Source: a virus
IMG/VR virus record: IMGVR_UViG_3300035047_000215
Strand: one strand, 5' to 3'
DNA: 64,000 nt
In this document: piece by piece, positions 25,985 through 45,081 of the stretch
Layout of the letters: every line of letters begins with the position of its first letter
Position numbering within the stretch: the first letter of the stretch is position 1
Translations under genes and position numbers: made by a program
The notes under the pieces: generated by a model
What the model saw: the letters and a program-made list of their open reading frames with translations, nothing else
Database searches by the model: none
Told to the model about the DNA's origin: nothing

Positions 25985-25995
25985 AGGTGCAACGA

Positions 25996-28900
25996 ATGGG
26001 ATTTCCAAGCAAGATAGATGCTGACTGGGTAGATAACCTGACCGATGAGGAAGCGGACAAGATCCATAAAAAATCATGGGAAACCGACCCGGAATACCGG
26101 AAAATGTTTGAAGATGATCCGGACATCCCGGACCCGTCCATTTATGCGCCCAAGCCCCCGCCCGAACCGCCAAAAGGGCGGACCGTCGGCGGGACCCTGA
26201 AAGATGTCGCCATATCCGGAGCCAAAAGCATTATCAGTACCGGTGAGATGGTTCCCGGGTTACTCGACATTCCCACAGGCGGACGTGTCAGCAAAGCCAT
26301 GGAAGACCATTTGGGGTATGATCCCCAGGGGACCAAAGACTGGCTGAGTTCCCATTATTCCGATGCCCAGAAGCGGGCCAATCAGAAGCTGGCAGAGGCA
26401 GAGGGTTTCTGGGGTACCGTCAAAACAGCATTGCAGAACCCGAGCACCATCGGCCATGCGGCCGTTGAATCCCTTCCGCTGATGTTTGCAGGCGGCGCCA
26501 TCGGGCGTGGCGGTGTAAAGGTGCTGAATAGATATGGCCCTAAAATCTGGGTGAATGCCAGCACCAAAATGAAAATGGCCCTGGCTGCCGGCGCAGGAGA
26601 GGGCGCGGTAATTTCCGGGCTATCTGCTTCTGAGATCCGGCAGGAAACCGAAGATGGTTATCTGTCTTTGGGCCAGTCAGCCGCGGCCGTCGCTTCCGGT
26701 TTGCTGGGTGGTGCCATTGGTTTCGCCGGTGGCCGGGTGGCGCAGAAACTGGGTATTGCGGACCCTGACACCATGCTTGTGGGGTTGAGCAATGACCTGA
26801 GACCCCAGCATATTGCCAAACGGATTATCACCGGTGGGATCACCGAGGGCGTGTTTGAAGAACTGCCCCAGGAGTCCCAGGAAGCGATATGGGTCAATGC
26901 GGCCCTTGGCAGGCCCTTAATGGAAGGTGTGGCCGAATCAGGGGCAATGGGTATGCTGGCGGGTGGATTGATGGGAGCCGGCACACAGCTGAAGCCAGGG
27001 CGGCAGGAACAGGCCCCGCCCGATCCCCGGCGCAGAGTCCTGGCCGAGGCGACCCACAACCCGGATAATCCCAGCCTTGCTATCGGAGCTGCCACGACCG
27101 GCATGACCACGGTTCAGGCTTCATCTGTCACCAGACGGTTGAATGATCTTGAGGATCCGGGCGCACGGGAAAAGGCCGTGGATGAAATCGAAAAGGCCCT
27201 TGTCAAAGCCGCTCCCACCCCGGAAGAAGGGAAGCGCCGGGCCAAAGCCTTTGCAGGGTATGCCCTGGGCAAGATCGATGCCGGGGAAGAAATCGAGATC
27301 GATGCGGACCTGGTAGAGTACGCTTCACTGGACCCGGTAGCCAAAAACGAATATGCCAAAGATACCATGTTGGGCGCTGCCGAGGAAACCATCCAGACCC
27401 TGGAAAAGAAAATCGGCAACCTGGAGAAAATCAAGAAGCCGACGCCGGAGATGCAGGCAAACCTTGAGCAGTTCAAAGCGGATCTGGACGTGGCCATGCA
27501 GTCATATGACGCATTGTCCGCAGCGGACCCGGCCCAGGAGGCAGCAGAAGAAACAGCCACGGAAACGGATGCCAAGCCAGATGAAAAATCCGACCAGGCC
27601 CCGGCCATGGAAGACAGTGAAGCGGCCGACCTTTATACGGACGAGGAACTGGATAAGGTAGCCGGCCCGGACATCACCCCCGACGACGTTCAGGAATTTC
27701 TCAGCTACGGCGTGACCGAGGAAGAAGTCGCGGCCATGGACACAGAGACGGCCAAGCAGACGCTGTTTGATCTGAGGACCCAGGCGGAGAATCTGGCAAT
27801 CCAGGAGGCCGAATGGGGGAACAGGGATGCCGGAGTGCCGGAGACCGACGAGGCCGGCACCAGAGATCAAATGGCATGGAAGAATCGGAAAACCGATATC
27901 CCGGAAACGGATGAAGGCGCCAACCGGGATTATTACCAGATCGAGCAGGACATTAAGGGGCAGCGGGAAAAGGCAAAGGTTGACAATAATCTTGAAAAAG
28001 TAACGAATGATTCTGATAAGGTTGACAATCCTCCACTTAAAGACACCGATTCCGCTGACATGGATGAGGCAACCCTTCGGCAAACCCTGGACGGGGGGCA
28101 GACGGTCCCTGAGTCAGTGCTTGACAATCACCCGGATCTGAAAAAGGAGTATTATGATAAGGTCACGAACAACGAGCTTGACATGGTACTTACCGGGGAT
28201 GGAAAGATCGGGTTCAAGGAAATGGATCCGGGGTATATCCCTCAAGATGTCGGAAAAAACAAGGACGGAGAAAAAATCTTTACCCGTCCAGTAGAGCCGG
28301 GCAAGCGATACGTTGATGATTCAAATGGCAACCAAAGCGGCACAACCGGCACACCGGAACAGCTGTTCAAGGAAGGCAAGACTCGTTTCCTGACGGATGA
28401 GGAAATCCAGAAGTTTACAGCAGAAAGCCTCCAACCCGGCCAGACCGTCACCTGGAAAAACAAAAAGGGCAAGGAGTTCACCGGGACCCTGAACAAGCAG
28501 CAGGGGAAAAACTGGCACATCACCCTGGATAACGGTAACAACTCCATCATGCCGGGAACACAGCTGTCACCTGTTGAGTCAGAGCAGAAGACCCACGACG
28601 ACAAGGATATCGAGATCGATGGCGATACCGTATCCGTGGACATGCCGGCAGCTGAAGAAAAGACCCTGAAGCCGGCGGAACAGAAAAAGTACCTGATGGA
28701 TGAGATCGATGCGGCCATCAAGAAAGCCCCGGATTCAAAAGAGCGGCCAACCAGTGGGGGAAACGATGCCTCAATGGATTTCAGGTACAACAAACTGAAT
28801 TTCGGTTATATCACCATCGAGGTGCCCAATGATGGTGAATATAATGTATTGAACACCAAGACCGCCCTGGCTGAGTTTAAGAAGCGGGCCAAGAGATTTC

Positions 28901-31900
28901 CGGCCAAAGAATTTGAACAAACGAATCCAATGCCAAAACCTGCCGGAACCAGGCCGACGAACACCAGGGTAACCGGGTTTGCCGGTGACTATATCCGAGA
29001 ATACGCCCCAAAACGGTCAACAAAGGTGCCGGATCCGCCTGCCCGTGGTGGGAAATACTATCAACAGGATGGTTGGTTCTCGAATGGCGTGACGGCTGTC
29101 AAGGCTACTCCAAAGAACCTTAGCAAACAGTATCCCAAAGAAGCCTTCCCGGATGGCGGCCTTGAAAAACTTATCAATGACGGTCAGACAGACAACCATG
29201 AGGTGACAGCCGTAACAGAGCTGTATGAAAGCCCGGATGCTGATATCCAGACCCTTAAGGCGGTTGTGTTTGCAGAAGACGCACCACCAAATAAGAACAC
29301 GGCTGTGTTTGATCCCCGGCAACTTGATCTGGTTTTTAGGTTTTTCCCGGATGCCAAAATGAGCATCAAGTTCGGGGAATCCTCCGCAGGCGAATATGGC
29401 ATTTTGTTTTTCAAGGACAAGGGCCAGGTGGTTGGGGTTGTTCAGTCCCATTACACCAAACGGGAAACAGACAGCCACATCAAAAGGGCCCTATCGGAAA
29501 TACAGCGAAAGCGCGACGTTGAGAAAGAGAAGCAGGCCCGACCGAGCGAGACGGCAGACCCTGTAGCCGACCGGCTGAAGCGGGCCAAAGAGGAACTGCC
29601 GACAGGCTACTACATTCAGAGGGAAAGGGGGTCTGACGGGAGCGCGGTTTTTTCATTAATGAAAGACGGGCGATACGTTGTCAATGGCCTGAATCATTCT
29701 GTCAATGGGATCGATGAGGCTGTCCGGCAGGCCAAGTCCCGGGTGAAGAAAACAGAACCCGTCACCCCTGCATCCGTAGCCTATGGCCACCTCAAAGCCG
29801 GCAAAGGCTTCAAGAACATCACCGAAGCCCGCAAGGTCATCGGGGAGGCGACCGGCCAGGAGATAAAACCCGGCACCACTGAAGCAAAGCAGATGGATGA
29901 AGTGATTGAAGTGGTGGCGGTTAGGGTCGCCCGGGAGATAGTGGCAGAGGGCAAATCTCCGCAGGAAACATTTGATGCCCTGGTGGACCTTCAGGACCGG
30001 ATGCCGAATCTGTCCGTCAGAACATCCACATCGATGCGGAACCAGGCATATTCGACGCCATTGCCTTTGGCATATGTTGCATCATTGCGGGCCGGTATCA
30101 CCGGGAAAACAAGCGTTTTCGAGCCCTCAGCTGGCAACGGGGCCTTGTTGATCGGGGCCAACCCCAAAAAGGTCATTGCCAATGAAATTGATCCGTCCCG
30201 TGTGTTAAATCTTCAGTACCAGGGCTTTGGCAAAGTCATGCAAGAAGACGGGTCCGCCTTTACGGTTTCCATGATGGATGACAGGGTGGATGTTGTCGTT
30301 GGCAACCCGCCTTTTGGCACTGTGAAAGATGATCGTGGAAATTCCAGAAGATGGACAATCACGCACGAATACGAAACCACACAGATCGATCATGCCATGG
30401 TCTTCAACGCCCTGGAGCAAATGAAGCCCGACGGCCGGGCCGTGTTTATCATCGGCAGCGTGAAGGACCAGAACACAGAAGAACGTGCCCGGATGAACCT
30501 TTACCGGAATCCGACCAAGGTGCAGTTCTTCAAGCACCTCATGGACAACTATAATGTCGTTGACCTGTTTTCTGTATCTGGTAAACTATACTCTAAACAG
30601 GGTGCCAAATGGCCGGTCGATGTCATTGTCATAGATGGTTCAGGCAAATCTGCCATGACACTCCCCGGGGCAAAGCCGCCCCCGTATATCAGCACACTGG
30701 AACAATTAAAGGAGAAACTTGATGGCACAAGAACTGATAGCCTGGATGCCGACGGAACACGAGGACCTGGAGACAGCACAGTACCTGCTGGCGATTCAGA
30801 TACCCAAGGGACGGGTATTGGACAGAACGATGTTCATGAACAACTGGGGGTGGGGACTCCAGTCGATGGCGGAACGGTCCGGGAACCTGGAGGAAGTGAC
30901 GGAACATCTGGCGTCGAAGCTGGAGAGCCTGGGACTGCTTCCGGAGGGGGTGGACGCGGAAAGTCTGGAACAGATGTTGGATCCGGACACCAACCCACGG
31001 ATAGCGGATCTACTGAGAGCGTGGGGGATAGCGGACATGGTACCCAACAAGCCGCTGACGGAGATAAACAAAGAGGCGGAAAAACTGATACAGGAAAGGG
31101 ACAGCAGCACCTGGGTGGACAGTCTCCGGTATCCATAGATCAGGAGCTTGCCAATACATCTGAAGCAGACCTGGATGCCATGCTTGATGAAGCATTCGGG
31201 GAAGACATCACCGTACCACAGGATATTTCCGAAGAACTTCAGAACATGTCAGAGGATGAAATCGATAGCCTCATCGATGACGTGTTTGATGCACCTGCCA
31301 AAACCGCCAAAACCAAAATCCCGGATGAAAAACCGGACAGGGGCCGGCGATCCACGGACGTGGGCCTTCAATCCACCAGGGCGAAGAACGAAGAAGCAAT
31401 AGAGCGGTATTTGAAGAACTGGGCCAGACGTGAAGCCCGGAAAAACAAACCCCCGAAACGGCCGCCCAAAAATCCCCCAAAGGATCCGAAAGACAATCTG
31501 GAAGATATCGCGCTGGAAAGCCTGGAAGGTGTCAAGGATGCAGTCTCCGGACTGAGCGCCCTGTTCACCCCGCGCAACACCCTTTCTTCCGGGTTCATAT
31601 TCAACGAAGAAACATACAAGGCCGCAAAGCCTTATTTTGTCAGCGCCTGGAATCATGCCAAGGCTGCCGGCCATTCCTTGAAACAACTTATTCAGCACCT
31701 GGCCACCCAGTTTGGCGCAGAAATAAAGCCGTATCTGAAACGGTTTTTCGTTGACCAGACCGCAGCAGAAAAAAACAAGGACAAAAAACCGCCCGAGCCC
31801 AAAGAGGAAAAGGCGGATCCAGAGACCCAGGTTGCATATACCCCTGCCAGCAAATCCACAGCTATCGGCACCCTTATGCCGAAGAATATGGCTGAATCCA

Positions 31901-34900
31901 TCAATACTGCACTGAAGGCGGTTCAGGATCAGCACGGGGATATCGATAAATATGTGGCGGATCAGCTGGGATACACGGTTGAGGAAGTCGTCGGGACCAA
32001 GGGTAAATTCGGTTATTTCTCAGCTGAACAGGTGGATGCCATTGCCTTGGCCATGAACAATATCAGCGTCGGGTCCGGGTTTATCATCGGGGATCAGACC
32101 GGCGTAGGTAAGGGCCGGGTTGTGGCGGCCATGATCCGGTATGCCATGCGCAATGATATGGTGCCTGTCTTTGTGACACACAAGGCATACCTCTATTCAG
32201 ATATGTACCGGGACCTGTCAGACATTGGGATGGCTGATATAGCTGACAGAATCCTGATGACCAATTCCAATGAAAAGATCCCGTTGACCGCCGATGGGGA
32301 AAAGATTCTCAGCACCAAGGCAACCCACCTCCAAAACTTGCGTCGGATGACCAGTGAGGGAGAGATCTCCAAGGATTATGATGTGGTTTTCACCACATAC
32401 GACCAGATGAATACCACTGGTTCGGCCAGAAGGGTTTTCATGGAGACCATCACCCGGGGCCGCGGCATGCTGATCATGGATGAAGCCCACAATGCCGGAG
32501 GAACGGCAGGTGACAGGGTGAATCCGCAGACAGGCCAGGTTCCAAGATCGATCTGGTTCAGAGAGCTGATTCAAAACGCACACTCCACTTTCTATTCATC
32601 CGCCACATATGCGAAACGGCCGGATACTATGTCCCTGTATTCCAGAACGGACATGCGGCTGGCCGTGGACGATATCAATGATCTGGCCCATGCCATCGGG
32701 CAGGGCGGCGTACCCCTTCAGCAGGTCACGGCCACCATGCTGGCTGAGGCCGGGCAGTATATCAGGCGGGAACGCTCGTTTGACGGCGTGGACTATAACA
32801 CTGAGACGGTTGAGGTCGATCAGGTAAAAGCGGCGGCCATGTCTGTTGCGTTTGCTGACATCAAGAAATTCAGCGATGAATATATCGGCGGGGCCATGCA
32901 GGATATTGAAGACGGAGGCGCAGCGGGCGGCACCAGTGTTTCTGGTTCATCATCCGCATCGGACCGGAACATTTCCACGACCGGGTTTACATCGGTGATG
33001 CACAACCTGATTGGCCAAACCCTTTTAGCATTGAAGGTCCCGGCAGCTGTTGACCTTGCCATCAAGCAGTACCAGGAAACAGGCAAAAAACCGATCATTG
33101 CACTGGCCAACACCATGGGGTCATTCATAGAAGAACACGCCCTGGAGAACCATCTGACCCCGGGTGATGGCATCGGGTTGTCATTCAATCATTTGATCGC
33201 CAATTATTTGGACAAGACCCGTAGATACAAAGAGGGGAAAAAGCCCAACCAGGTTGAACGGTATATCACGGATGAACAACTGGGGCCGGAAGGCGTCCGT
33301 GAATTCAACCGGGTCAAGAACATGATCTATGACCTGGATTTTTCCGGGGTTCCCATATCACCCGTTGACTATGCGCTGGGGAAATTCAAAGAGGCCGGCA
33401 TATCAGCCGGGGAGATCACCGGCAGACATCACACCATAGAGTACCGCAAAGACGGCACCACCACTTATCAGCGCAGGGGCACCAAAGAGACATCAAACAA
33501 GGCAAAAGTTGACCTTATGAGGGATTTCAACGAGGACAAGGTGAATGCCATGGTCCTCAATCAAAGTGGATCCACAGGGCTATCCCTTCATGCGCTGCCA
33601 AAGTGGGAGGGCCACGATCCGGCTGAACGTGTCATGATCCTGGTGCAGACCGAGGCCAACATTGACACCCACATGCAGATGCTGGGCCGGGTCCATCGGG
33701 CCGGCCAGGTCAAGACCCCGACATATATTCAGCTGACAGGAAATATTCCCACTGAGATGCGCGGAGCCGCCGTATTGGCCGGAAAAATGGCCAGCTTGAA
33801 TGCCAACACCACGGCAGCCAAGGGCAGCAAGCTGGAAGCCGAAGGGGTTGTTGACTTTATCAATAAGTATGGGAACCGGGTGGTGGCCAACATCATGGGT
33901 GACTTTCCGGAAATCCATGAAGCCCTGGGATCTCCGTTACCTCAAAAAGACAGCACCGCTTCCGGACTTTCGGAGCTGGGGGCTGCCAGGAAGGTGACGG
34001 GCCGGATACCGCTCTTGAGGACCATCAAGGAACAAAAAGACCTGTATGACATGATCCTGTCTGAATACAAGGATCTGATTGAGCAGCTGGATGCCATGGG
34101 ACAAAACGACCTGGAGGCCAAATCGTTTGATACCGATGCCAGGACCCTTAGCCGGGCGGTTGTCTTTGAAGGCAGGGGGCAGTCTCCTTTTACCAGGGAA
34201 GCCGTTGCCGAAGTCGTGGACATGAAAAAAATCGGCCGGTCTTACACCAGCCAGGAGGTTACCAACCTTCTGAAGCAATATGTTCTGGGCATGGACAGCA
34301 CCACGGCCAAAAATACAGATCGTACCATCCAGGAATTGATGGTAGACGTTGAGGTGGCAAAAGAAGAACGGTATCAGGATAAGATGGAAGCCTTCCGTGT
34401 CTTCCTGAACGAACAGCTGGAGGATATCGAGGACGAAGACCGGAGGCAGGCCACAAGGGTCCGTCTGACCACCATTGCAGACCATTGGCGATTCATTCAT
34501 GACGTGGCCATCCCGGGTACCGTCTGGGAATTTCCACTGGGAGACACATATTTCCCCATGGTTGTTTTGAACGTCCAGCAAAAAGGATCCCCCAAAAATC
34601 CGTTGGCCCTGGGAACATGGCGCGTGACATTTGCCGTGCCGGATTCAGCCAGGCGGTTTGAGATCTCATTTGCCGCCATAAACAACCTGGTGAGAACGGA
34701 ACAGGATCTATTGGACGGCAACCGGGGGCCGGCGACCGACGCAGACCTTGCCCGGTTTGACAGGGCCAGGAGGACAGCCAGGGAAGACCGGACCATCATG
34801 ACCGGCAACCTGCTGGCAGCGTATGCGAGATATTCCAGGGGCCGGATTATCAACTTTACCGACAATAATGGGAAAGTGCGTCAGGGGATCTTGATGCCGC

Positions 34901-37900
34901 AAACCTTCAACACGCAGGAAGCCTTTCAGGCACAAAGGGTCGTGTTGGACAACCCGGACAATATCATGGCCGTGTTGAACGAAGGGATTGCCGTCAAATC
35001 CAGACGCGGTGATTTGATCGCCGGCAATGTCCGGAGCAGATCCGGAGCAATAGACCCTGATACGTTTAGCCTCAGTGTACCATCGTCCCGGGTCAAGGGG
35101 GCGACATACTTCCTGAACCAGGGGTTGTTGGATGCCATTGGGCGGGACCGAGAGTTTGTGAAGCGTGGCAACCGGATGATAGCAACGGTCCCCAGATCGC
35201 GGATACGGGGCGCTTTTAAGCACATGCTCGACAACATGAACGAGCTGTTTGAAAATGCCAGCGACAACCAGCGCGTCAGAAATGTTTTGGGCATCGAGGA
35301 TTTGACGGTTGAACAGGTGGGTGAATCGGCCACACAGACAGAAGACAGCCAGGCCCAGTTTTCCACAAATGCCGATTACACCCCCGGCCAGGGCCTGGAT
35401 CTGAAAGATATCCAGTCCCGGTTCAAGGGCCAGAGCCTTTTCCTTACCAAAGATGGAACCATCGCAATCCGGATGAAAAACGGCATGGGCCTGGTGGTCC
35501 GGATGGTCAATTTTGGCAATGGTGACACCCGTATGGCCATGGATATGGGCCGCATGAAAGAAGGCGGGGTAGTCCTGGGCAAATACGAAAATCTGGAAAT
35601 CCAGCTGAACCAGGATCTGGCAGACACCCTGACCCGGGATCATGAGCTGTGGCATTTTCTGGAAGAAAACCTGCTTACCGAGTCAGAAAGAATGGTGTTC
35701 CGGAACAAGGCCAAAGCATACGAGGCGGCCGGCAAGTTCAAGTTTGAATGGCGGTCTGACATGAAAGAGAACTCTGCCAATGCCTTTGCCCAGTTCCTCC
35801 AGGAAAGAGAACTTCACCGGGGCACGGCCCTGGGCAGAGTCATCCAGAAGATCCTGGATTTCATCGATGGGCTGAGACACATCGCCCAGATGTCTGAACG
35901 GAAGTTGGCCAGGGAAGTGGAAGGCGGGCAGATGTTTAGCCGGCAGCCGGTTCACGGGCAATCCGGACAAACCTCTTTTGCGGCAGCACCCGGGCGGGAT
36001 TCTGCTGCATTCAAGAAATGGTTCAAAAACAGCAAGGTCGTGGATGAAAACGGCGAGCCCATGGTTGTGTATCATGGGACCATGAGAGACTTCAATATCT
36101 TTGGCAGCGGCCGAGAGGGCCAGATATCTACCAATATCGGCACCCATTTTGCCAAGGATCCAACCGTGACAGATGCGTTTACCATGGGGAACTACACCCT
36201 GCCATCCAGTCATTCCGTGGATACCTGGAACCCGGAAAACAGCTGGTACCGGGACAAAGACGGAAACGTCAGGTTCGATGGTGTTGTCGTGGTTCAGAAC
36301 CAGATGGAAAACAAGGTGGAAGTTCATAACGTCGAAAAGCATGGTCCGCTGTCCAATCTAAAAAGCCACTGGGCGCCCAGGGTCGCGGCACCTGGTGGAA
36401 GGGTCCACCCCACCTATTTATCGATCCAGAATCCCCTTGTGGTTGACAATGATCCGTCGTTTTCCCTGGATGACTATGACGTGGCCAAAGAGATTGCCAA
36501 GGTGGTACTGCCGATGGACCAGGCCCTCTTTGTTCATCTGGCGACCAGGAACCTTATGCTGTCAGAAGAACAGGCCGCAAAAGTGTGGTCAGCATTCAAG
36601 GATGGAGACCCGGTAACTTCTCCCGCGGCCAGCAGTTTGGCGGAAATAATGGGCGGCAAGGACGGGCTTAAATACCACACCTGGGAAGAATATATTTCTG
36701 CCAACAACGGCATTATGAACCATGCACCCAGGGAAAGGGTTGTGCAGCTGTTGACACGGGCCGGGTATGACGGGGTTGTGTATAACAACACCTCCCGGAA
36801 CGAGGTGATGCCCGGGGCGGACCCAAAAGCATATATCATCCTGGAACCGACACAGGCAAAGTCTGTTTACAATCGAGGGGCCTGGGACGGGACAAATCCG
36901 GATCCCCGGTACAACACCCAGGAAGACAGACTGGCATATGATGATGCCCTGTTCGCCAACAAGTATGTCAGCCGGAGAGTGGGCCGGAAACTCACGGAAA
37001 AGGAAAAGGAAGTGGGCCGGCTGGCCTATGGGATCAAGGGTTTGAATCCGGATCACGTCAAGAAAGCGGCGCAGGAAATGGCCGACAAGATCCCGGGGGA
37101 TAAGAGCAAGGCTATTCTGGTTCCCATCCCCGGGCACACCGGTGACACGGCCGCCAACGTCGCCATTGCTGAACAGATAGCCAAAATCACCGGGGCAAAG
37201 ATTCAGGATATCCTGGTAAGAGAGGCTGGCCCGTCACAAAGGGACTTGAGGGTTTCCCGGAAAAAAACACAATCCCCGAAAGAGATCGTCACGGCCGCTG
37301 GGGAAAAGATTTCCCGCACAGAAGACGTGTACTTTATTGATAATGTGATTACTTCCGGGGCCACCATCCGGGCGGCGCGGGATGCCGTTGGCGGGGGCCG
37401 GGGCCTGGTATATGCCAAGTCTTTTTCAAAGGGTCCCAAATACACCTTTGCCGGACCCGAGGCCCTGGGCGCGGATAAGGGCATGGCCTTTGAAGCCCAG
37501 CAGATGAGAGATGCCGGCAAAAGCCGGAAAGCTGTATGGGAAAAAACCGGATGGTGGGAGATCATCCCCGGGTCTGATGTCTGGTCATGGGAGATCGATG
37601 ACAGCAAGGCAAACGTCAATCTGGATGCACTTCAATCACTCCCCGGCCGGCTGGACCTTGCCACGCAGTACCTGAGAGATCAGGGGCACATCACCGGCAA
37701 ACAAGATATAGGATCCCCGGCAGCGACCGAGCCCTTGCGTAAAAAAGCGCTGGCATGGGCAGATGAACAGATCAAATCCGGAGAGGCCGCGTCTATACCG
37801 CTTGATCAGGTGCTCGACCACCCAGAGCTACATGAAAACTATCCTTTTTTGAAAGGGATAAAAGTAACAAGGGCCACCAGCCCAGAGTATGCTGGGGTTT

Positions 37901-40900
37901 TTGATCCGGACACAAACACCATAGGAGTATCCGGGTTCATACATGAAGATCCGAAACAGGTTTTCCTGCATGAAATCCAGCATGCCATCCAGGACCATGA
38001 AGGGTTTGCGACTGGGGGGAACCCTGATTTATTTGTCAATGACCCGACTTTTACGCCGACCCCATTAAGTAAAAGACTTGCGGCGGCGGTACGGCGGCAT
38101 GAAGAAGCGGGAAGGGGTCCTGATGATTATTTCAAGGAACGCGGGCCAGATGGTGAATGGATAACTTCCGTCGAAGATGCCAAGAGATTTTTAAAGGCTG
38201 TCAGGTCCGCAAATGCCTATAATACCTATCGCCTACTTACCGGCGAGGCCCAGGCCCGCCTGACAGAACGGCGCATGGTCTTAAAGGGAAACAAGACCCG
38301 TAAAGCAGAGCCCCCCTGGATCACCCTGAAAGGAATAATGCAGGAAGAAGGATTGTTGCAGGAGGGCCAAGAGCCTGAAGACGTTTTGATCACCCGGTAT
38401 GTCGAAAGCGTGTCAGCCAGCGTGGTAGAAGATAAAAATGAGATCAAAAGGCTGGAGTCTGGCAAAAAGATCAAGGTGTTCCGGGCTATGCAGGTCATTG
38501 ACGGAGAACTTTACCCACCGATGTCCGCCAAGGTAGACGGCAAATTGAGGGAGCCCACCAAAATAGGACAATGGGAAAAAGCGGATGAAAACCCGGAGCT
38601 GATCAAGAAGGGCAATAAGTTCAAGCTGGACAAAGCCAACAAGTCATCCATTGCAGCTGCATATAACCCATATTTTCACACGTCAGCGTCGCCGTTGAAT
38701 GACCAGTTCTCATCTGCTTATAAAAGGCCAAATCTGGTCACTGTCGAGGTAGAGATCCCAGCCAGTGAATTGACAAGCGGATACAAAGCCGAGGGAGCCA
38801 AAGATTCCGTTGGTGAAAAGAAATGGCATTCCGGACCAGTGAGCAGCAAACTATCTGCCGGGAAAAAGCGCACAGTTATCCTTTCCAGATACGCCAAGGT
38901 GTTGCGTATCGTCCCTGACAGTGAAGTCGCGGGAACTATTGCAAACCTTTTGGAAGGTGAGAACGTCACCATCCCTGAAAAGGTAGTTACTCTATCGCTC
39001 AGGGCAGAATTGGAAAAACGAGGGGTGCCTATAGCCGGAGCCCAGTATTCCACATCCTCCGACCGTAAAGACCCCATGTCCGTCTTGCCGGAACCGGCCA
39101 GGGTCCGGATGAAGAAGGCCCGGGGAGTGGATCATACCTCTTTCATCGATGAGGCAAAAAACTGGTTCCAGAAAGTCAAGGAACAGACTGCCCACTTCCC
39201 GGAGCTGACCCGGGTACAGGATAAGAGCAAGCGGGCCATATTCAAGGAAATGCTCCGGCAGCATCAGGAGATTCCGACGATATCCCAGGATAAAGCGGCC
39301 CGGGCCATACACGGGTTTGTGTCCGGGATGACCAAGCAGGAATATGACCTGTATTCCCTCCGGCTGATCCTGGGGGATGAAATAGCCAACCTGAACGATG
39401 GGGCCAGGACAGAAAAAAACCTGCCTTTCGGGTTCAAGTCTGCCAATGAGATCCGGGAGAGTTACCGGAAAATCAATCAGATGGTGGAGGCTTCCCCGAA
39501 GGTCAAGAAGGCCCTGGACGCCCGGCAGGAATATCAGCACCAGGTGGCACGGCGCCTGGTGGAACACGGGATCTTGAACAAAGATGTCCTGAAGAAAAAA
39601 GAGTATTTCCACCACCAGGTGTTGCAATACTGGAACCTGAAGGAACGGGCCTTGAAAGGTCTGGGTACCGGTTCCAAAGATGCCCGGTCCCACTGGCGGC
39701 CCTGGATGACAAAACGGAAAGACTCCCCGCTTGATTATAATACCGAGTATGTGGAAGCCGAGCTGATGGCGCTGGCCCAGATGATTGCCCAGGCCGACAC
39801 AGCTGACAGCCTGAGAAAGATCCGGGCGGAAGCTGATATCTTGCCGGAACTCAAACAGGCGGCCAAGCAGGTCAACACACAGATGATCGATGCCATCTAT
39901 TACAAACTGGCCAAACAGGGTAAATGGGAAGTGACCAAAGACGGGGAACCTGTGGATCCGCTGTTACCCTTCAAGCAGAAAATTGCGATCGGTTTCAGCC
40001 AGCTGGAGAAGCTGGCAAAAGACAACTCCCTGACCTATGACCCCGGGTTTGAACATCTGGTGGATGCGCTGGCAAAGGGAAACACTTCTCACCCCCAGAT
40101 ATGGCAGTTCCTGTCAAACCAGATCCAGAAAGAACACTCCGGGTCCATGCAGGCAGCGATGATATACAAAAACATCAAAGCCCGGGACCAGTTTATAAAG
40201 GATACCCTGGGAGACCGGTTCAAGACCGCCGAGAACATGGTACCGGATGGGTATGTGGCATGGGAGCCCAAAAAGAACACCGGTTGGTTTAAGGTCAACA
40301 CGATTGCGGACCAGACCCTGGAAAAAGTGCTTTCCGGAGAAAAGGCATTGCAGGACCCGGACGTTAAACAGATTCTGGCAAAAGGCCGGCCCCAATACTG
40401 GGTGATCCCGGAAGGGCTGGCCGATACCATGGATAATTTCAGACCGGTCCCCAGTGATTTTGCCCTTGGCAGACTGTCCGGCCGGATCATGACCGGGTGG
40501 AAGCAGTATATTCTGTTAAATCCCCTGTCTGTCATGAAATACAATATCAATAACATGAGCGGCGACCTGGATGCCACGCTGGCATTTGATCCAAAGATTG
40601 CCACCTACTCCAGGCAGGCATTCAAGGACATCCGTAAATGGATGAAATACGGGAAAAATGAAGAACTGGACATCGCCCGGGATAAAGGGGTGATCGGGTC
40701 CGGGTTTGCCGTCCAGGAGGTGGAGGACACAATCCAGATGCTGGGTGTCAACCGGGTGGTGGATGAAGTGATGCTGGAGAAAAACCCGAAACTGGTGTCC
40801 AAATACTGGGCCACAGTAAAAGGGTGGTCAACATGGCGGGAAAACACGCTCAGGCTGGCAGCGTACCGGTATTTCAAGGATCAGCACAAAAAAGGGGTCT

Positions 40901-42057
40901 ATGAGACGTTCGGCGCTTCCAAACCGTCAGAGATCCGGGCCCTGGTTGATAGCGGCCGGGCTGATGATGCAGCTGCCAAAATGGCCCGGGAGCTTTTGGG
41001 CGACTATGGGGCCATATCCCGGCATGGTGAAATGCTCAGAAAGCACCTGATCCCGTTCTGGTCGTGGATGGAAATCAACCTGCCCCGGTACGTTTACCTG
41101 TTGCGGAACCTGAAGCATGAAGGCGGCACGGCCGGCACCGGCACCAGGGCGGCGGGCGTTCTGGCAAAGCGTGGATCCATGTTCGCCTTGAAGGCGTCCC
41201 TGCTGTACGGCGCAATCTCCCTGTGGAACCTGACAATGTTCCCGGATGAGGATGACGACCTGGGGGAAGCAAAGCGGGGACAGCTTCAGCTGATCCTGGG
41301 CAGAACCAAAGATGGATCCATCCGGACCTTGCGCGTTGAGGGTGCATTGTCTGATGCCCTTTCGTGGTTCGGAATGGAAGATCTTCCCGGGGATGTCAAA
41401 GACGTGTACCAGGGCCAGGCAAACCTGACAGACAAGGGCGTTGATATGGGAAAGGCCCTGGTCAATCGATTTGCCCAGGGGTTGAGGCCCGATGCCAAGA
41501 CCATGGCCGAAGTGGCTGCCGGCAGGAAATTTTATCCGGACGTGTTCTCCCCTAGGCCTATTCGGGACACGGTTGAACATGTCCTTGGTACCGTGAAAAT
41601 GCAGATGCCGTATCAGTGGATGACCGGGAAACCGAAAAAGGGGAGCACGGCATCTGAGCACCTGGTGAATGATTTGCTCCAGATGTTCACATACACCACG
41701 GAAGCTGGTGTGCAGGCTTACTATGATACCCGGTCGCAAGTGTATGACTGGAAGGATAAGAACGGGCAGGAGTCAGGCGGGGGCCAGCCGACATCCAGGG
41801 GCAATGCCCTGTATTATTACAAACAGGCCATGAAATACGGAGACCTGGAAGCAGCAGACAGGTATATCCGGAAATACGCTGAATTGGGCGGGACCTACCA
41901 GGGGCTGAAGCAGTCCATTCGGATGGCGCACCCGCTTTCAGGGATAAAGAAGCAGGACCGGGCCAGATTCTTGAGTGAGCTGACCCCGGCCCAGAGAGAC
42001 CGCCTTAACCAGGCGATTCAATGGTATCAATCAACATATTTAGGGAGAAAATCATGA
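25996..42057 (+). CDS. Giant multi-domain 'polyvalent' protein (~5,350 aa): MTase + SNF2/SBNO-type helicase + 2 x HExxH + ART-like + PRTase + unassigned regions
   Basis: A single stop-free frame of 16 kb. ATG 25996 is preceded by AAGGTG (25984-25989); the alternative GTG at 25987 is the listed start. There is an ATGA overlap with the next gene at 42054-42057. Motifs are listed in the domain features below. Confidence 0.9.
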   Translation: MGFPSKIDADWVDNLTDEEADKIHKKSWETDPEYRKMFEDDPDIPDPSIYAPKPPPEPPKGRTVGGTLKDVAISGAKSIISTGEMVPGLLDIPTGGRVSKAMEDHLGYDPQGTKDWLSSHYSDAQKRANQKLAEAEGFWGTVKTALQNPSTIGHAAVESLPLMFAGGAIGRGGVKVLNRYGPKIWVNASTKMKMALAAGAGEGAVISGLSASEIRQETEDGYLSLGQSAAAVASGLLGGAIGFAGGRVAQKLGIADPDTMLVGLSNDLRPQHIAKRIITGGITEGVFEELPQESQEAIWVNAALGRPLMEGVAESGAMGMLAGGLMGAGTQLKPGRQEQAPPDPRRRVLAEATHNPDNPSLAIGAATTGMTTVQASSVTRRLNDLEDPGAREKAVDEIEKALVKAAPTPEEGKRRAKAFAGYALGKIDAGEEIEIDADLVEYASLDPVAKNEYAKDTMLGAAEETIQTLEKKIGNLEKIKKPTPEMQANLEQFKADLDVAMQSYDALSAADPAQEAAEETATETDAKPDEKSDQAPAMEDSEAADLYTDEELDKVAGPDITPDDVQEFLSYGVTEEEVAAMDTETAKQTLFDLRTQAENLAIQEAEWGNRDAGVPETDEAGTRDQMAWKNRKTDIPETDEGANRDYYQIEQDIKGQREKAKVDNNLEKVTNDSDKVDNPPLKDTDSADMDEATLRQTLDGGQTVPESVLDNHPDLKKEYYDKVTNNELDMVLTGDGKIGFKEMDPGYIPQDVGKNKDGEKIFTRPVEPGKRYVDDSNGNQSGTTGTPEQLFKEGKTRFLTDEEIQKFTAESLQPGQTVTWKNKKGKEFTGTLNKQQGKNWHITLDNGNNSIMPGTQLSPVESEQKTHDDKDIEIDGDTVSVDMPAAEEKTLKPAEQKKYLMDEIDAAIKKAPDSKERPTSGGNDASMDFRYNKLNFGYITIEVPNDGEYNVLNTKTALAEFKKRAKRFPAKEFEQTNPMPKPAGTRPTNTRVTGFAGDYIREYAPKRSTKVPDPPARGGKYYQQDGWFSNGVTAVKATPKNLSKQYPKEAFPDGGLEKLINDGQTDNHEVTAVTELYESPDADIQTLKAVVFAEDAPPNKNTAVFDPRQLDLVFRFFPDAKMSIKFGESSAGEYGILFFKDKGQVVGVVQSHYTKRETDSHIKRALSEIQRKRDVEKEKQARPSETADPVADRLKRAKEELPTGYYIQRERGSDGSAVFSLMKDGRYVVNGLNHSVNGIDEAVRQAKSRVKKTEPVTPASVAYGHLKAGKGFKNITEARKVIGEATGQEIKPGTTEAKQMDEVIEVVAVRVAREIVAEGKSPQETFDALVDLQDRMPNLSVRTSTSMRNQAYSTPLPLAYVASLRAGITGKTSVFEPSAGNGALLIGANPKKVIANEIDPSRVLNLQYQGFGKVMQEDGSAFTVSMMDDRVDVVVGNPPFGTVKDDRGNSRRWTITHEYETTQIDHAMVFNALEQMKPDGRAVFIIGSVKDQNTEERARMNLYRNPTKVQFFKHLMDNYNVVDLFSVSGKLYSKQGAKWPVDVIVIDGSGKSAMTLPGAKPPPYISTLEQLKEKLDGTRTDSLDADGTRGPGDSTVPAGDSDTQGTGIGQNDVHEQLGVGTPVDGGTVREPGGSDGTSGVEAGEPGTASGGGGRGKSGTDVGSGHQPTDSGSTESVGDSGHGTQQAADGDKQRGGKTDTGKGQQHLGGQSPVSIDQELANTSEADLDAMLDEAFGEDITVPQDISEELQNMSEDEIDSLIDDVFDAPAKTAKTKIPDEKPDRGRRSTDVGLQSTRAKNEEAIERYLKNWARREARKNKPPKRPPKNPPKDPKDNLEDIALESLEGVKDAVSGLSALFTPRNTLSSGFIFNEETYKAAKPYFVSAWNHAKAAGHSLKQLIQHLATQFGAEIKPYLKRFFVDQTAAEKNKDKKPPEPKEEKADPETQVAYTPASKSTAIGTLMPKNMAESINTALKAVQDQHGDIDKYVADQLGYTVEEVVGTKGKFGYFSAEQVDAIALAMNNISVGSGFIIGDQTGVGKGRVVAAMIRYAMRNDMVPVFVTHKAYLYSDMYRDLSDIGMADIADRILMTNSNEKIPLTADGEKILSTKATHLQNLRRMTSEGEISKDYDVVFTTYDQMNTTGSARRVFMETITRGRGMLIMDEAHNAGGTAGDRVNPQTGQVPRSIWFRELIQNAHSTFYSSATYAKRPDTMSLYSRTDMRLAVDDINDLAHAIGQGGVPLQQVTATMLAEAGQYIRRERSFDGVDYNTETVEVDQVKAAAMSVAFADIKKFSDEYIGGAMQDIEDGGAAGGTSVSGSSSASDRNISTTGFTSVMHNLIGQTLLALKVPAAVDLAIKQYQETGKKPIIALANTMGSFIEEHALENHLTPGDGIGLSFNHLIANYLDKTRRYKEGKKPNQVERYITDEQLGPEGVREFNRVKNMIYDLDFSGVPISPVDYALGKFKEAGISAGEITGRHHTIEYRKDGTTTYQRRGTKETSNKAKVDLMRDFNEDKVNAMVLNQSGSTGLSLHALPKWEGHDPAERVMILVQTEANIDTHMQMLGRVHRAGQVKTPTYIQLTGNIPTEMRGAAVLAGKMASLNANTTAAKGSKLEAEGVVDFINKYGNRVVANIMGDFPEIHEALGSPLPQKDSTASGLSELGAARKVTGRIPLLRTIKEQKDLYDMILSEYKDLIEQLDAMGQNDLEAKSFDTDARTLSRAVVFEGRGQSPFTREAVAEVVDMKKIGRSYTSQEVTNLLKQYVLGMDSTTAKNTDRTIQELMVDVEVAKEERYQDKMEAFRVFLNEQLEDIEDEDRRQATRVRLTTIADHWRFIHDVAIPGTVWEFPLGDTYFPMVVLNVQQKGSPKNPLALGTWRVTFAVPDSARRFEISFAAINNLVRTEQDLLDGNRGPATDADLARFDRARRTAREDRTIMTGNLLAAYARYSRGRIINFTDNNGKVRQGILMPQTFNTQEAFQAQRVVLDNPDNIMAVLNEGIAVKSRRGDLIAGNVRSRSGAIDPDTFSLSVPSSRVKGATYFLNQGLLDAIGRDREFVKRGNRMIATVPRSRIRGAFKHMLDNMNELFENASDNQRVRNVLGIEDLTVEQVGESATQTEDSQAQFSTNADYTPGQGLDLKDIQSRFKGQSLFLTKDGTIAIRMKNGMGLVVRMVNFGNGDTRMAMDMGRMKEGGVVLGKYENLEIQLNQDLADTLTRDHELWHFLEENLLTESERMVFRNKAKAYEAAGKFKFEWRSDMKENSANAFAQFLQERELHRGTALGRVIQKILDFIDGLRHIAQMSERKLAREVEGGQMFSRQPVHGQSGQTSFAAAPGRDSAAFKKWFKNSKVVDENGEPMVVYHGTMRDFNIFGSGREGQISTNIGTHFAKDPTVTDAFTMGNYTLPSSHSVDTWNPENSWYRDKDGNVRFDGVVVVQNQMENKVEVHNVEKHGPLSNLKSHWAPRVAAPGGRVHPTYLSIQNPLVVDNDPSFSLDDYDVAKEIAKVVLPMDQALFVHLATRNLMLSEEQAAKVWSAFKDGDPVTSPAASSLAEIMGGKDGLKYHTWEEYISANNGIMNHAPRERVVQLLTRAGYDGVVYNNTSRNEVMPGADPKAYIILEPTQAKSVYNRGAWDGTNPDPRYNTQEDRLAYDDALFANKYVSRRVGRKLTEKEKEVGRLAYGIKGLNPDHVKKAAQEMADKIPGDKSKAILVPIPGHTGDTAANVAIAEQIAKITGAKIQDILVREAGPSQRDLRVSRKKTQSPKEIVTAAGEKISRTEDVYFIDNVITSGATIRAARDAVGGGRGLVYAKSFSKGPKYTFAGPEALGADKGMAFEAQQMRDAGKSRKAVWEKTGWWEIIPGSDVWSWEIDDSKANVNLDALQSLPGRLDLATQYLRDQGHITGKQDIGSPAATEPLRKKALAWADEQIKSGEAASIPLDQVLDHPELHENYPFLKGIKVTRATSPEYAGVFDPDTNTIGVSGFIHEDPKQVFLHEIQHAIQDHEGFATGGNPDLFVNDPTFTPTPLSKRLAAAVRRHEEAGRGPDDYFKERGPDGEWITSVEDAKRFLKAVRSANAYNTYRLLTGEAQARLTERRMVLKGNKTRKAEPPWITLKGIMQEEGLLQEGQEPEDVLITRYVESVSASVVEDKNEIKRLESGKKIKVFRAMQVIDGELYPPMSAKVDGKLREPTKIGQWEKADENPELIKKGNKFKLDKANKSSIAAAYNPYFHTSASPLNDQFSSAYKRPNLVTVEVEIPASELTSGYKAEGAKDSVGEKKWHSGPVSSKLSAGKKRTVILSRYAKVLRIVPDSEVAGTIANLLEGENVTIPEKVVTLSLRAELEKRGVPIAGAQYSTSSDRKDPMSVLPEPARVRMKKARGVDHTSFIDEAKNWFQKVKEQTAHFPELTRVQDKSKRAIFKEMLRQHQEIPTISQDKAARAIHGFVSGMTKQEYDLYSLRLILGDEIANLNDGARTEKNLPFGFKSANEIRESYRKINQMVEASPKVKKALDARQEYQHQVARRLVEHGILNKDVLKKKEYFHHQVLQYWNLKERALKGLGTGSKDARSHWRPWMTKRKDSPLDYNTEYVEAELMALAQMIAQADTADSLRKIRAEADILPELKQAAKQVNTQMIDAIYYKLAKQGKWEVTKDGEPVDPLLPFKQKIAIGFSQLEKLAKDNSLTYDPGFEHLVDALAKGNTSHPQIWQFLSNQIQKEHSGSMQAAMIYKNIKARDQFIKDTLGDRFKTAENMVPDGYVAWEPKKNTGWFKVNTIADQTLEKVLSGEKALQDPDVKQILAKGRPQYWVIPEGLADTMDNFRPVPSDFALGRLSGRIMTGWKQYILLNPLSVMKYNINNMSGDLDATLAFDPKIATYSRQAFKDIRKWMKYGKNEELDIARDKGVIGSGFAVQEVEDTIQMLGVNRVVDEVMLEKNPKLVSKYWATVKGWSTWRENTLRLAAYRYFKDQHKKGVYETFGASKPSEIRALVDSGRADDAAAKMARELLGDYGAISRHGEMLRKHLIPFWSWMEINLPRYVYLLRNLKHEGGTAGTGTRAAGVLAKRGSMFALKASLLYGAISLWNLTMFPDEDDDLGEAKRGQLQLILGRTKDGSIRTLRVEGALSDALSWFGMEDLPGDVKDVYQGQANLTDKGVDMGKALVNRFAQGLRPDAKTMAEVAAGRKFYPDVFSPRPIRDTVEHVLGTVKMQMPYQWMTGKPKKGSTASEHLVNDLLQMFTYTTEAGVQAYYDTRSQVYDWKDKNGQESGGGQPTSRGNALYYYKQAMKYGDLEAADRYIRKYAELGGTYQGLKQSIRMAHPLSGIKKQDRARFLSELTPAQRDRLNQAIQWYQSTYLGRKS
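26182..26991 (+). other. Giant ORF segment: glycine-zipper/hydrophobic N-terminal region
   Basis: aa ~66-335 contain repeated small-residue hydrophobic blocks: ESLPLMFAGGAIGRGGV, MALAAGAGEGAVISGLSA, AAAVASGLLGGAIGFAGG, GAMGMLAGGLMGAG. Confidence 0.6.
29990..30700 (+). other. Giant ORF segment: N6-adenine DNA methyltransferase domain
   Basis: Motif I is VFEPSAGNGALL (~30114-30150). Motif IV is VVGNPPFG (NPPF at 30304-30315). Confidence 0.75.
32040..34900 (+). other. Giant ORF segment: SF2 helicase of SNF2/strawberry-notch type with long C-terminal extension
   Basis: GDQTGVGKGR (GVGKG at 32101-32115), LIMDEAHN (32476-32490), LNQSGSTGLSLH (~33553-33591) and QMLGRVHRAGQ (33676-33708). Confidence 0.75.
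35560..35700 (+). other. Giant ORF segment: first HExxH zincin-like motif
   Basis: ..GKYENLEIQLNQDLADTLTRDHELWHFLEENL.., with HELWH at 35641-35655. Confidence 0.45.
36000..36915 (+). other. Giant ORF segment: ADP-ribosyltransferase-like domain (of the kind seen in polyvalent proteins)
   Basis: FKKWFKNSKVVDENGEPMVVYHGT..FNIFG..THFAKD...GYDGVVYNNTSRNEVMPG..YIILEPTQAKSV. This is recalled similarity only; no search was run. Confidence 0.45.
37030..37420 (+). other. Giant ORF segment: ComF-type phosphoribosyltransferase domain
   Basis: ..AILVPIPGHTGDT..PSQRDLRVSRKK..EDVYFIDNVITSGATIRAARDAV. The PRPP-binding loop is at ~37327-37365. Confidence 0.65.
37450..38290 (+). other. Giant ORF segment: second HExxH zincin-like metallopeptidase domain
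   Basis: ..WSWEIDDSKANV..LDHPELHENYPFL..VFLHEIQHAIQDHEGFATGG..LLTGEAQARLTERR, with HEIQH at 37969-37983. Confidence 0.55.
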
Positions 42058-43853: not shown

Positions 43854-44924
43854 TCAACTCAGACCCACACATTCTCCCACATTCTCACCCTTTTCACACA
43901 AATCATTCTCACAAAAAATATCATTCAATTTTTCCACGGCGGACCTTTCGGCTGACTCGATACTGTGCAAATATATTTCAGTTGTCTGCAATGCCTTGTG
44001 ACCCAGTAGGGCACCGATGGTCTTTTTGGATATTTTCTCATGGTCAGCAAGGTACGATGCGATAAAGTGCCGGATGGCATGGAACCCGAATGCCGGCTTT
44101 ATATCGGCCCGCTTGCACAACCCCGCCATCATCTTCGGGCGGTGCATGTACCTGGTTTTTGTTTTCTCATTATAGAACACCCACATCTCACTTTCCCTTG
44201 TGTCCCATCGGCGTTTCAATATGCCATACAGCACATTATTCATGTAAATGGTGACGGATTCGTATGTACCCGATTTTCTTTTCCGTGTCCACTTTTTTAT
44301 TTCACGCCGGGTGAAATTGATATCTTGCCACCTCAGCCGTAACACTTCATCTATGCGGGCAACGGTATGGATCAAAACCATGAGAATATCCCGTTCATCT
44401 GTTTTTGGATCCGCGGCCATGATCAGCTTGAGGATATCTGTCTGAGGCGGTATGTATTTTTCATCCGGGGTATGGGGCATCTGATCCAGGTTCCAGCACG
44501 GGTTGTAATCGATGATGCGCTTCACCCTCTTTGCGAAGGTGAACAGGGCACACAGGTCTTTCCGGTGTGCATTGTAATTGTTGTTTGTGGGCCTGGTGTT
44601 AAGATAATGATGCAGGTGGGATGCTGTAATTTGATCGATTGGCAGGTTGCCGGTGTGCTTTACAAAACTTTTTAGTACGAAGGCTTTCTGTTTATATGTT
44701 TTGGGCGCAAACTTCCTTTTGGCAAGATCCAGGTATTCATAGGCAATGGTTTTAAAATCCGTGCCGGAAGTCGTCCGTGCAGACTTGAGCCGTTTTCTTT
44801 CTGCGGCCTCCGCTGCCATTGACTCCGTTTTTGTTTTGAACCCCGACTTGGTGTGACGATCCCCGTCCTTCATGAAATCGTACCGCCACACCCTGCCGGC
44901 CTTGTAAGATGTCATTGATAACAT
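43854..44924 (-). CDS. int: Tyrosine recombinase / phage integrase
   Basis: 356 aa. ..HTVARIDEVLRLRW.. (Arg), HAIRHFIASYL (HxxR) and LGHKALQTTEIYLH (His..Tyr). Confidence 0.9.
   Translation of the reverse strand: MLSMTSYKAGRVWRYDFMKDGDRHTKSGFKTKTESMAAEAAERKRLKSARTTSGTDFKTIAYEYLDLAKRKFAPKTYKQKAFVLKSFVKHTGNLPIDQITASHLHHYLNTRPTNNNYNAHRKDLCALFTFAKRVKRIIDYNPCWNLDQMPHTPDEKYIPPQTDILKLIMAADPKTDERDILMVLIHTVARIDEVLRLRWQDINFTRREIKKWTRKRKSGTYESVTIYMNNVLYGILKRRWDTRESEMWVFYNEKTKTRYMHRPKMMAGLCKRADIKPAFGFHAIRHFIASYLADHEKISKKTIGALLGHKALQTTEIYLHSIESAERSAVEKLNDIFCENDLCEKGENVGECVGLS
43890..43915 (+). repeat. 26-bp perfect direct repeat, copy 2 (inside the 3' end of int)
   Basis: Identical to 43680-43705. It is preceded by two more CACATTCTC units (43868-43886). 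Confidence 0.9.
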
Positions 44925-45081
44925 CCTCCCTGAACCTTAGCACTTTAATACCAGCCGGATAAAATCCGCATAGCCTCTTTTTGTTCTTATAGACCGTTTT
45001 TAGGTCAATTTGCAAGAGGTCTGCGACTTCTTCCGGCTTCAGAAGCTGAGGGAGGTTATATGTCTGGTGGTTGGGTGTCAA
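44752..45081 (-). CDS. Excisionase-like HTH protein
   Basis: The N-terminal ..LLKPEEVADLLQIDLKTVYKNKKRL..GIKVLRFREDVINDIL resembles an HTH_17/Xis-type fold. The 3' part overlaps the int start in another frame, so the true C-terminus is uncertain. Confidence 0.5.
   Translation of the reverse strand: MTPNHQTYNLPQLLKPEEVADLLQIDLKTVYKNKKRLCGFYPAGIKVLRFREDVINDILQGRQGVAVRFHEGRGSSHQVGVQNKNGVNGSGGRRKKTAQVCTDDFRHGF

Follow-up and report, generated by a model that had tools for sequence, protein, structure and literature searches.

An ADP-ribosyltransferase domain beside a ComF-like phosphoribosyltransferase-fold domain in a giant, probably virion-delivered phage polyvalent protein

We analyzed a 64,000-nucleotide (nt) stretch of viral DNA (IMG/VR virus record IMGVR_UViG_3300035047_000215), hereafter the window, in which one uninterrupted open reading frame (ORF; 25987–42057, + strand) starts with GTG and encodes a giant polyvalent protein of 5,356 amino acids (aa). 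Two neighboring domains of this protein are described here: an ADP-ribosyltransferase (ART) domain of the ART-PolyVal family (36001–36915; aa 3339–3643) and a ComF-like domain with the type I phosphoribosyltransferase (PRTase) fold but without a zinc ribbon (36934–37431; aa 3650–3815). Both lie on the + strand, as do all features below unless the − strand is given. The original prediction for this DNA, made from the letters alone, had listed peptides typical of each domain and had placed the PRTase block about 40 aa after the ART block. All of these peptides lie in one frame of the giant ORF. The ART-type motifs are FKKWFKNSKVV (aa 3342–3352, nt 36010–36042), VVYHGT (aa 3360–3365), THFAKD (aa 3386–3391), GYDGVVYNN (aa 3593–3601), and YIILEPTQAKSV (aa 3616–3627, nt 36832–36867), and together they span aa 3342–3627 (nt 36010–36867). 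The PRTase-type motifs are AILVPIPGHTGDT (aa 3709–3721, nt 37111–37149), SQRDLRVSRKK (aa 3750–3760), and EDVYFIDNVITSGATIRAARDAV (aa 3779–3801, nt 37321–37389), spanning aa 3709–3801 (nt 37111–37389). The second block does follow the first in the same frame, but the gap measures 82 aa rather than about 40. As a domain, however, the PRTase reaches further upstream than its motifs: it starts near aa 3650, roughly 6–10 residues past the last residue of the ART domain, and a strand and two helices come before the LVPIP strand.

The first domain matched ART-PolyVal in Pfam (PF18760; E-value [E] 7.6e-15), a clade related to Tox-ART-HYD2. The score was 56.3 bits against a gathering cut-off of 31.2, and the match fell into two stretches split by inserts. 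The family motifs F-x-x-WF-x-x-SKVVDE-x-G-x-P-x-VVYHGT, YLSIxNP, GYDG, and P-x-Q-x-KS are all present in the window, and the predicted active site comprises H3363, H3387, and D3595. In an alignment of about 80 family segments, the strand-1 His (H3363 in VVYHGT; HG[TS]) was conserved in 99% and the strand-5 Asp (D3595 in GYDG; G-[YFH]-D-G) in 88%. The window domain differs from the family model in length, about 305 aa against 140 model positions, and carries inserts of about 65 and 110 aa. Insert 1 (36160–36360, aa ~3392–3458), between strand 2 and the YLSIQNP strand, is absent from 11 compact members; insert 2 (36424–36750, aa ~3480–3588), ahead of the GYDG strand, is much longer than in compact members. 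Relatives with long inserts (P0011, P0017, P0020, and P0027) cover 54–56% of the query. When the ART profile was compared with PDB sequences, the ART-superfamily enzyme Tpt1/KptA alone was returned, and its E of 0.11 is not significant; the basis for calling this domain an ART is therefore the Pfam match, together with the survey of polyvalent proteins by Iyer, Burroughs, Anand, de Souza and Aravind (2017, J Bacteriol; PMC5512222, sections 9 and 24). That survey reports both an ART and a PRTase domain of ComFC type from polyvalent proteins of phages, ART being the commonest enzymatic domain in such proteins.

The second domain is almost missed by single-sequence methods. A phmmer search of the segment against PDB gave PyrR at E 0.15, and NCBIfam gave PyrR at 1.1e-4 and ComF at 0.024, both far under their cut-offs. 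A three-sequence profile against PDB yielded sub-significant matches to PyrR and to synthase of phosphoribosyl pyrophosphate (PRPP). An AlphaFold run on the same small scale (three-sequence alignment; predicted local distance difference test score [pLDDT] 61) gave weak Foldseek matches that already pointed toward PRTases. An exhaustive HMMER search with a small profile uncovered many relatives, with 918 representative clusters reaching E ≤ 1e-3 and 433 of them E ≤ 1e-10, the representatives being clusters at 50% identity. Given this number of relatives, and the ART-PolyVal score above its cut-off, we do not regard either similarity as a product of chance. Among the best 150 representatives, 41 were proteins of 1,000–7,387 aa and 62 were solo forms of at most 235 aa. 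From the window segment and solo members we built an alignment of 63 sequences (A3). Its profile against PDB sequences returned phosphoribosyltransferase (PRT)-fold proteins as all of the top 22 matches (PyrR 5e-4, APRT 1e-3, PRPP synthase 3e-3). The AlphaFold (AF2) model from this alignment had a pLDDT of 92.2 and a predicted template modeling (TM) score of 0.88, and its top 50 Foldseek matches in PDB were all type I PRTases (best E 5.3e-5, probability 1.00), including APRT, PyrR, HGPRT, XPRT, PurF, PurR, ShosT, and ComF 7P0H. Against the viral structure library BFVD, the matches were generic PRTases at E > 1e-3 and no others. On the evidence of this model and the profiles, we regard the PRTase fold as a secure assignment, the domain being a divergent member.

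The three loops of the PRPP site are conserved in the family. The end of the LVPIP strand and the following pyrophosphate (PPi)-type loop, PIPGHTGDTAAN (37123–37158, aa 3713–3724), align to ILVPIPLH...N of ComF; here P3713 and P3715 are conserved in 100% of the family, G3719 in 98%, and N3724 in 74%. The flexible-loop region (37219–37326, aa 3745–3780) includes S3750 (91%) and R3745 (66%), the latter aligning to a nearly invariant Arg shared with ComF. The PRPP-binding loop VYFIDNVITSGATIRAA (37327–37377, aa 3781–3797) reads VYFI-DN-VITSGAT and has all canonical elements except that the second acidic residue is Asn, so that D-N (D3785-N3786, 37336–37341) stands in place of the canonical D-D. 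Across 148 aligned members, the loop positions were D in 100%, N in 97%, G in 100%, and T in 98%. Counting loop motifs gave DN 128, DD 1, and others 3 among 132 matches in the family, against DD in 22 of 22 in the ComF-like outgroup. We read the ART and the PRTase as two folded domains with purifying selection at their ligand sites.

The nearest cellular outgroup of this PRTase family is ComF. In a search of the family profile against 5.8 billion proteins, the tier next after the family members scored 44–54 bits (E 5e-9 to 1e-6), where PyrR and APRT reach ~22 bits, about half as much, and consisted mostly of ComF-type proteins with PF18912 (double zinc ribbon) and PF00156; four of them are named 'ComF family protein' by their sources. 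When hhalign compared the family with 17 ComF-type proteins, 140 columns aligned at 99.3% probability and E 1.2e-20, and the alignment paired the V-R-x-x-A-x-x-L-K helix with L-K-Y, iLVPIP with ILVPIPLH, L-x-R with L-x-R, and FVDNVxTTGxT with LVDDVxTSGAT. The domain thus shares a homologous PRT domain with ComF/ComFC (TIGR00201; Helicobacter pylori ComFC, PDB 7P0H, PMC9005727), comprising the LK helix, the ILVPIP strand, L-x-R, and the V-D-x-V-x-T-[ST]-G-x-T loop, and ComFC 7P0H had the highest query TM-score (0.49). Both identities in the original prediction, an ART fold of the kind recurrent in polyvalent proteins and a type I PRTase of ComF type, were borne out, the former by the Pfam match and the latter by Foldseek, which it had proposed as a check, and by profile searches; the ComF call agrees with what Iyer et al. 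had stated.

A true ComF orthologue was considered and rejected on the grounds of the missing zinc ribbon, the D-N loop, and a score under the family cut-off. Unlike ComF, the window domain lacks the N-terminal four-Cys zinc ribbon, and there is no Cys in aa 3640–3830 or in the whole protein. The clade has D-N where ComF has D-D, and its PPi loop is shorter and without RGxNQ. Moreover, the window domain sits in a phage protein, whereas ComF is a cellular competence factor. ComFC binds PRPP, adenosine monophosphate (AMP), and single-stranded DNA (ssDNA), and is needed for DNA transport and handling; it is not known to catalyze any reaction (PMC9005727). The polyvalent PRTase domain of Iyer et al. 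resembles ours in that it occurs in giant phage polyvalent proteins as well as in solo and MuF-linked versions, and in sharing with ComFC the Arg after strand 2 (R3745 here). The function of that domain was called enigmatic and was linked to DNA entry (PMC5512222). For the acidic pair, the same paper uses the words 'characteristic catalytic DD motif', in contrast to the D-N counted here; the difference may lie in a separate subclade or in loose wording. The text of the paper does not remark on the adjacency of ART and PRTase.

We scanned this adjacency with hidden Markov models of the two ART halves against all 63 PRTase-bearing proteins of at least 450 aa, the window protein included. ART was detected at a strict threshold in 14 of the 63 and lay within 100 aa of the PRTase in 7, against 2.3 expected; for carriers of at least 2,500 aa, ART occurred in 10 and lay within 100 aa in 4, against 0.54 expected. 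The expected counts assume uniform placement, a crude null model, and some of the architectures may share ancestry. The ART precedes the PRTase in the window protein, P0196, P0199, and P0193 and follows it in P0064, P0180, and P0192, with short linkers of 11–72 aa. Pfam architectures confirmed the order ART then PRTase in P0144 and P0199, and LPD3-ART-PRTase-MuF_C in P0196, which thus carries a MuF_C fusion. BLAST alignments were collinear across the junction between the window protein and P0196, P0193, and P0199. However, the five closest PRTase relatives (P0054, P0055, P0005, P0001, and P0002; 55–59% identity) have no adjoining ART, and no ART neighbor of a solo PRTase was found in the five genomic contexts read. 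Because both the closest relatives and the solo copies lack an adjoining ART, the PRTase works without ART in most settings.

In two of these relatives, P0005 and P0055, the PRTase lies instead close to the block that also follows it in the window. There, an LPD23 domain (PF18838, E 1.9e-13; 37441–37620, aa 3819–3878) lies directly after the PRTase, and a metallopeptidase-like domain with the zincin motif HEIQH (37969–37983, aa 3995–3999) and a weak match to DUF6782 (E 0.045) lies further on; the HEIQH region is homologous to segments adjoining the PRTase in P0005 and P0055. The giant protein has a second HExxH motif, HELWH (aa 3219, 35641–35655), and HELWH and HEIQH flank the ART-PRTase pair. 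These two motifs could be self-processing sites.

Two of the solo PRTases lie among phage head genes. In L001 (6807–7760) the solo gene stands between P22-type portal and coat genes, and in L005 (6001–6540) immediately upstream of an intein-containing large terminase. This placement in phage head modules suggests late expression and possible packaging even of the solo forms. In L007 the solo PRTase lies near RecA. In L002 (7301–8762) the solo PRTase lies in a conjugative-type region and adjoins a leucine-rich repeat (LRR) protein. In conjugative-like contexts (L002, P0200, and P0108) solo PRTases are fused to or preceded by an LRR_4 protein, with RadC, DUF6166, and an N6_N4 methylase nearby.

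The structural (late) operon of the phage ends with the giant gene. Genes for the terminase (large subunit), portal, major head, and head closure precede it on the same strand. The ~13 kb between the head-closure genes and the giant gene gave no Pfam match, and the genes there are presumably tail genes. A tyrosine integrase lies directly downstream on the opposite strand; therefore, the element is a temperate phage or prophage. Pfam detected N6_Mtase, AAA_34/Helicase_C_4 (Sno-type SNF2), ART-PolyVal, and LPD23 in the giant protein. The N6-adenine methylase (aa ~1423–1505) is followed by a Strawberry-notch-type SNF2 ATPase (AAA_34 + Helicase_C_4, aa 2010–2667), the two occupying 30253–33987, and together they are a DarB-like pair. 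The phage P1 protein DarB likewise has an N6-methylase with an SNF2-type ATPase and is encoded with virion genes (comparison after PMC5512222, section 14). DarB and T4 Alt are head-packaged anti-restriction or host-modifying proteins, whereas packaging and ejection of the window protein are predicted; moreover, the ART of T4 Alt belongs to the R-S-E clade and not to the H-Y-D clade (PMC5512222, section 9). The best phage match of the methylase-SNF2 region was a hypothetical protein of Bacteroides phage BS-TP4 (33% identity), and the PHROGs matches of the giant protein were other giant phage proteins to which no function is assigned.

The 5,356 residues of the giant protein contain no Cys. The 24 other window ORFs counted average 0.91% Cys, giving P ~5e-22 for zero Cys at this length, and PRTase-bearing giants from elsewhere are likewise Cys-poor (0–34 Cys in 2,600–7,400 aa). 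The absence of Cys may reflect passage through the tail or the periplasm, and such passage may account for the loss of the ComF zinc ribbon. Four upstream ORFs (19942–20607, 20607–22193, 22203–23723, and 25097–25984) also lack Cys. Iyer et al. (2017; PMC5512222) proposed packaging of polyvalent proteins and their delivery alongside the DNA. From the analogy to DarB and to MuF-fused effectors, and from the zero Cys count, we infer packaging and ejection of the giant protein; its position at the end of the operon, the DarB-like pair, the MuF_C fusion of its relative P0196, and the lack of Cys make it a plausible virion-delivered polyvalent protein.

Taken together, these observations lead us to favor, as the fairly probable reading, two autonomous effector domains side by side in a giant DarB-like polyvalent protein. 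Synthesized alongside the virion proteins, the giant protein would probably enter the host by ejection together with the DNA. The ART, with its H-H-D active-site configuration and two inserts, is predicted to use nicotinamide adenine dinucleotide (NAD+) for ADP-ribosylation of a host macromolecule early in infection. The PRTase would represent a large mobile-element clade derived from the PRT domain of ComF, in which the zinc ribbon was lost and the D-N loop was fixed. Its most likely ligand is a 5-phosphoribosyl compound, either PRPP or a nucleoside monophosphate. Rather than in NAD+ salvage, its task would probably lie around DNA entry: either handling nucleic acid in a ComFC-like way that depends on nucleotides, or producing or sensing a nucleotide. 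We favor a role at DNA entry with binding of a nucleotide or PRPP because ComFC, the nearest studied relative, binds PRPP, AMP, and ssDNA; a role of the polyvalent PRTase in DNA entry had already been proposed by Iyer et al. (PMC5512222). In our ranking, such a ComFC-like role would stand above PRPP depletion of the ShosT type (PMC11961720) and above NAD+ salvage.

Several observations weigh against this reading of autonomous, ejected domains. In the ART, the strand-2 Tyr of the H-Y-D triad is His (H3387 in GTHF), although His is a common variant within ART-PolyVal, whose column there holds Y in 38%, H in 23%, and F in 20%. For the PRTase segment, the Pfam model PF00156 gave nothing even at E ≤ 10, the ComF model TIGR00201 scored 14.6 bits against a cut-off of 233.55, and TM-scores to solved PRTases were moderate (0.4–0.5). 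Our literature searches found no experimental or biochemical study of ART-PolyVal and no experimental paper on a polyvalent or virion PRTase. Packaging and ejection are read from gene context. Finally, adjacency of ART and PRTase is commoner than the crude null predicts, and the two domains may not be fully independent.

This last point bears on the proposal that ART and PRTase serve one pathway. In one version, the ART would release nicotinamide or make an ADP-ribosyl product, and the PRTase would process it with PRPP; in another, a PRTase that binds nucleic acid or nucleotides would bring the ART to its target, and immunity based on NAD+ or on nucleotides would be blunted. The excess of close pairs, their occurrence in both orders with short linkers, the Pfam-confirmed architectures of P0196, P0144, and P0199, and the collinear BLAST alignments all argue for it. 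Yet those counts take in the window itself and possibly related architectures, and they set a crude null against the commonest enzymatic domain of polyvalent proteins (PMC5512222). The five closest relatives and the solo PRTases do without an ART neighbor, and an ART is missing altogether from about three quarters of the multidomain carriers. The fold also speaks against it: the PRTase is of type I and ComF-like, whereas the salvage enzymes Nampt and NadV are type II TIM-barrels (PMC9503650, section 3.6) and resemble the Rossmann-like PRT fold of the window domain in the name 'phosphoribosyltransferase' and in PRPP use, no more. NAD+ reconstitution by Nampt-like salvage was rejected as unlikely, the fold class being the wrong one. 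Adjacency is thus real but weak evidence for coupling, and we consider a shared pathway unlikely; the two-enzyme module on NAD+, ADP-ribose, and PRPP that the original prediction had envisaged found little backing, adjacency being enriched but not obligatory. A bolder form, in which ART and D-N PRTase move together as a recurrent pair and carry out a joint reaction on ribosyl donors of the NAD+/ADP-ribose and PRPP types, with the Asp-to-Asn change marking chemistry new to classical PRTases, appears to us quite unlikely. The possible outcomes of such a reaction would be to destroy or mimic a nucleotide immune signal, to regenerate a dinucleotide, or to phosphoribosylate or ADP-ribosylate the same target in the host or on DNA.

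Two other explanations concern the PRTase by itself. The domain could be a metabolic toxin, using up PRPP or making an aberrant nucleotide and so deranging purine and pyrimidine metabolism of the host, by analogy to the defence toxin ShosT. ShosT with PRPP-Mg is indeed among the Foldseek matches (rank 22, E 1.3e-3), and conservation extends to each of the three loops of the PRPP site; however, ShosT resembles the domain no more closely than housekeeping PRTases do. The nearest relatives are ComF proteins, which are not known to catalyze any reaction (PMC9005727), the D-to-N change takes away one of the two canonical acidic residues, and the Pfam scan of the giant protein showed no pyrophosphatase partner. 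We therefore judge a toxin very unlikely. The same D-N substitution is a departure from the catalytic D-D that would suit a non-catalytic module, in which the PRTase fold is purely an adaptor that is gated by a ligand or binds nucleic acid, like PyrR, PurR, and ComFC. Such a module might hold the incoming DNA end, or sense the nucleotide state of the host to regulate the LPD23-metallopeptidase block, near which P0005 and P0055 also keep their PRTase. The best sequence matches among solved structures are PyrR regulators, and ComFC binds ssDNA and nucleotides. PyrR, on the other hand, retains UPRTase activity (PDB 1non and 4p82, 'PyrR bifunctional protein'; NCBIfam 'uracil phosphoribosyltransferase PyrR'), and strict conservation of the PRPP loop suits catalysis equally. 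This alternative overlaps our preferred reading and differs from it on catalysis alone; a purely non-catalytic PRTase seems improbable to us.

The 2017 paper (PMC5512222) had reported the two domain types, their occurrence in polyvalent proteins of phages, and the link of the PRTase to ComFC. The novelty that the original prediction had implied for a virion-delivered PRTase thus holds in part: literature searches found none that is biochemically characterized, but PRTases in phage polyvalent proteins had already been described. To this our analysis adds, modestly, a marker for the clade in the fixed D-N loop, the finding that a Cys-free protein has lost the zinc ribbon, the size of the family, and a measurable, non-obligatory tendency of ART and PRTase to lie side by side. 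With its 918 representative clusters, the clade is spread over phage giants, phage head-module genes, and conjugative elements, and is diagnosed by the D-N PRPP loop together with the absence of a zinc ribbon. Should the PRTase act at DNA entry in the manner of ComFC, injection of phage DNA would be connected to natural transformation, in which the role of ComF is still unexplained. The boundaries of the two domains (aa 3339–3643 and aa 3650–3815) are clean enough for expression, and small natural test cases exist in the solo PRTase P0001 and the short ART-PRTase proteins P0199 and P0144.

The element has no close isolated relative. A blastn search of the region against GenBank phages gave no match, tblastn gave one distant match (Virus Rctr197k, 31% identity), and no isolated phage has a large terminase subunit more than 51% identical to the one here. 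Within the giant protein, the 638 aa at 34087–36000 had no PHROGs match, and the C-terminal 918 aa (39301–42054) matched neither Pfam nor PHROGs. The N-terminal aa 55–332 (26149–26982) contain several Gly/Ala-rich hydrophobic stretches and match phrog_30335, a profile of 2,900 positions made up of giant phage proteins, at its N-terminus (E 1e-48); this part of the window protein may be a conserved anchoring or packaging module. Two antisense ORFs, 35683–36342 (−, 219 aa) and 36589–37137 (−, 182 aa), were rejected as genes; they lie inside the 16-kb ORF, which has homologues along its length. Beyond the giant gene, 43857–51048 (−) encodes the integrase and then an SF2 helicase (ResIII/Helicase_C), an SbcC-like AAA_23 protein (851 aa), and an SbcD-like metallophosphatase; the genes past the integrase may serve phage recombination or may belong to a host or a defence locus.

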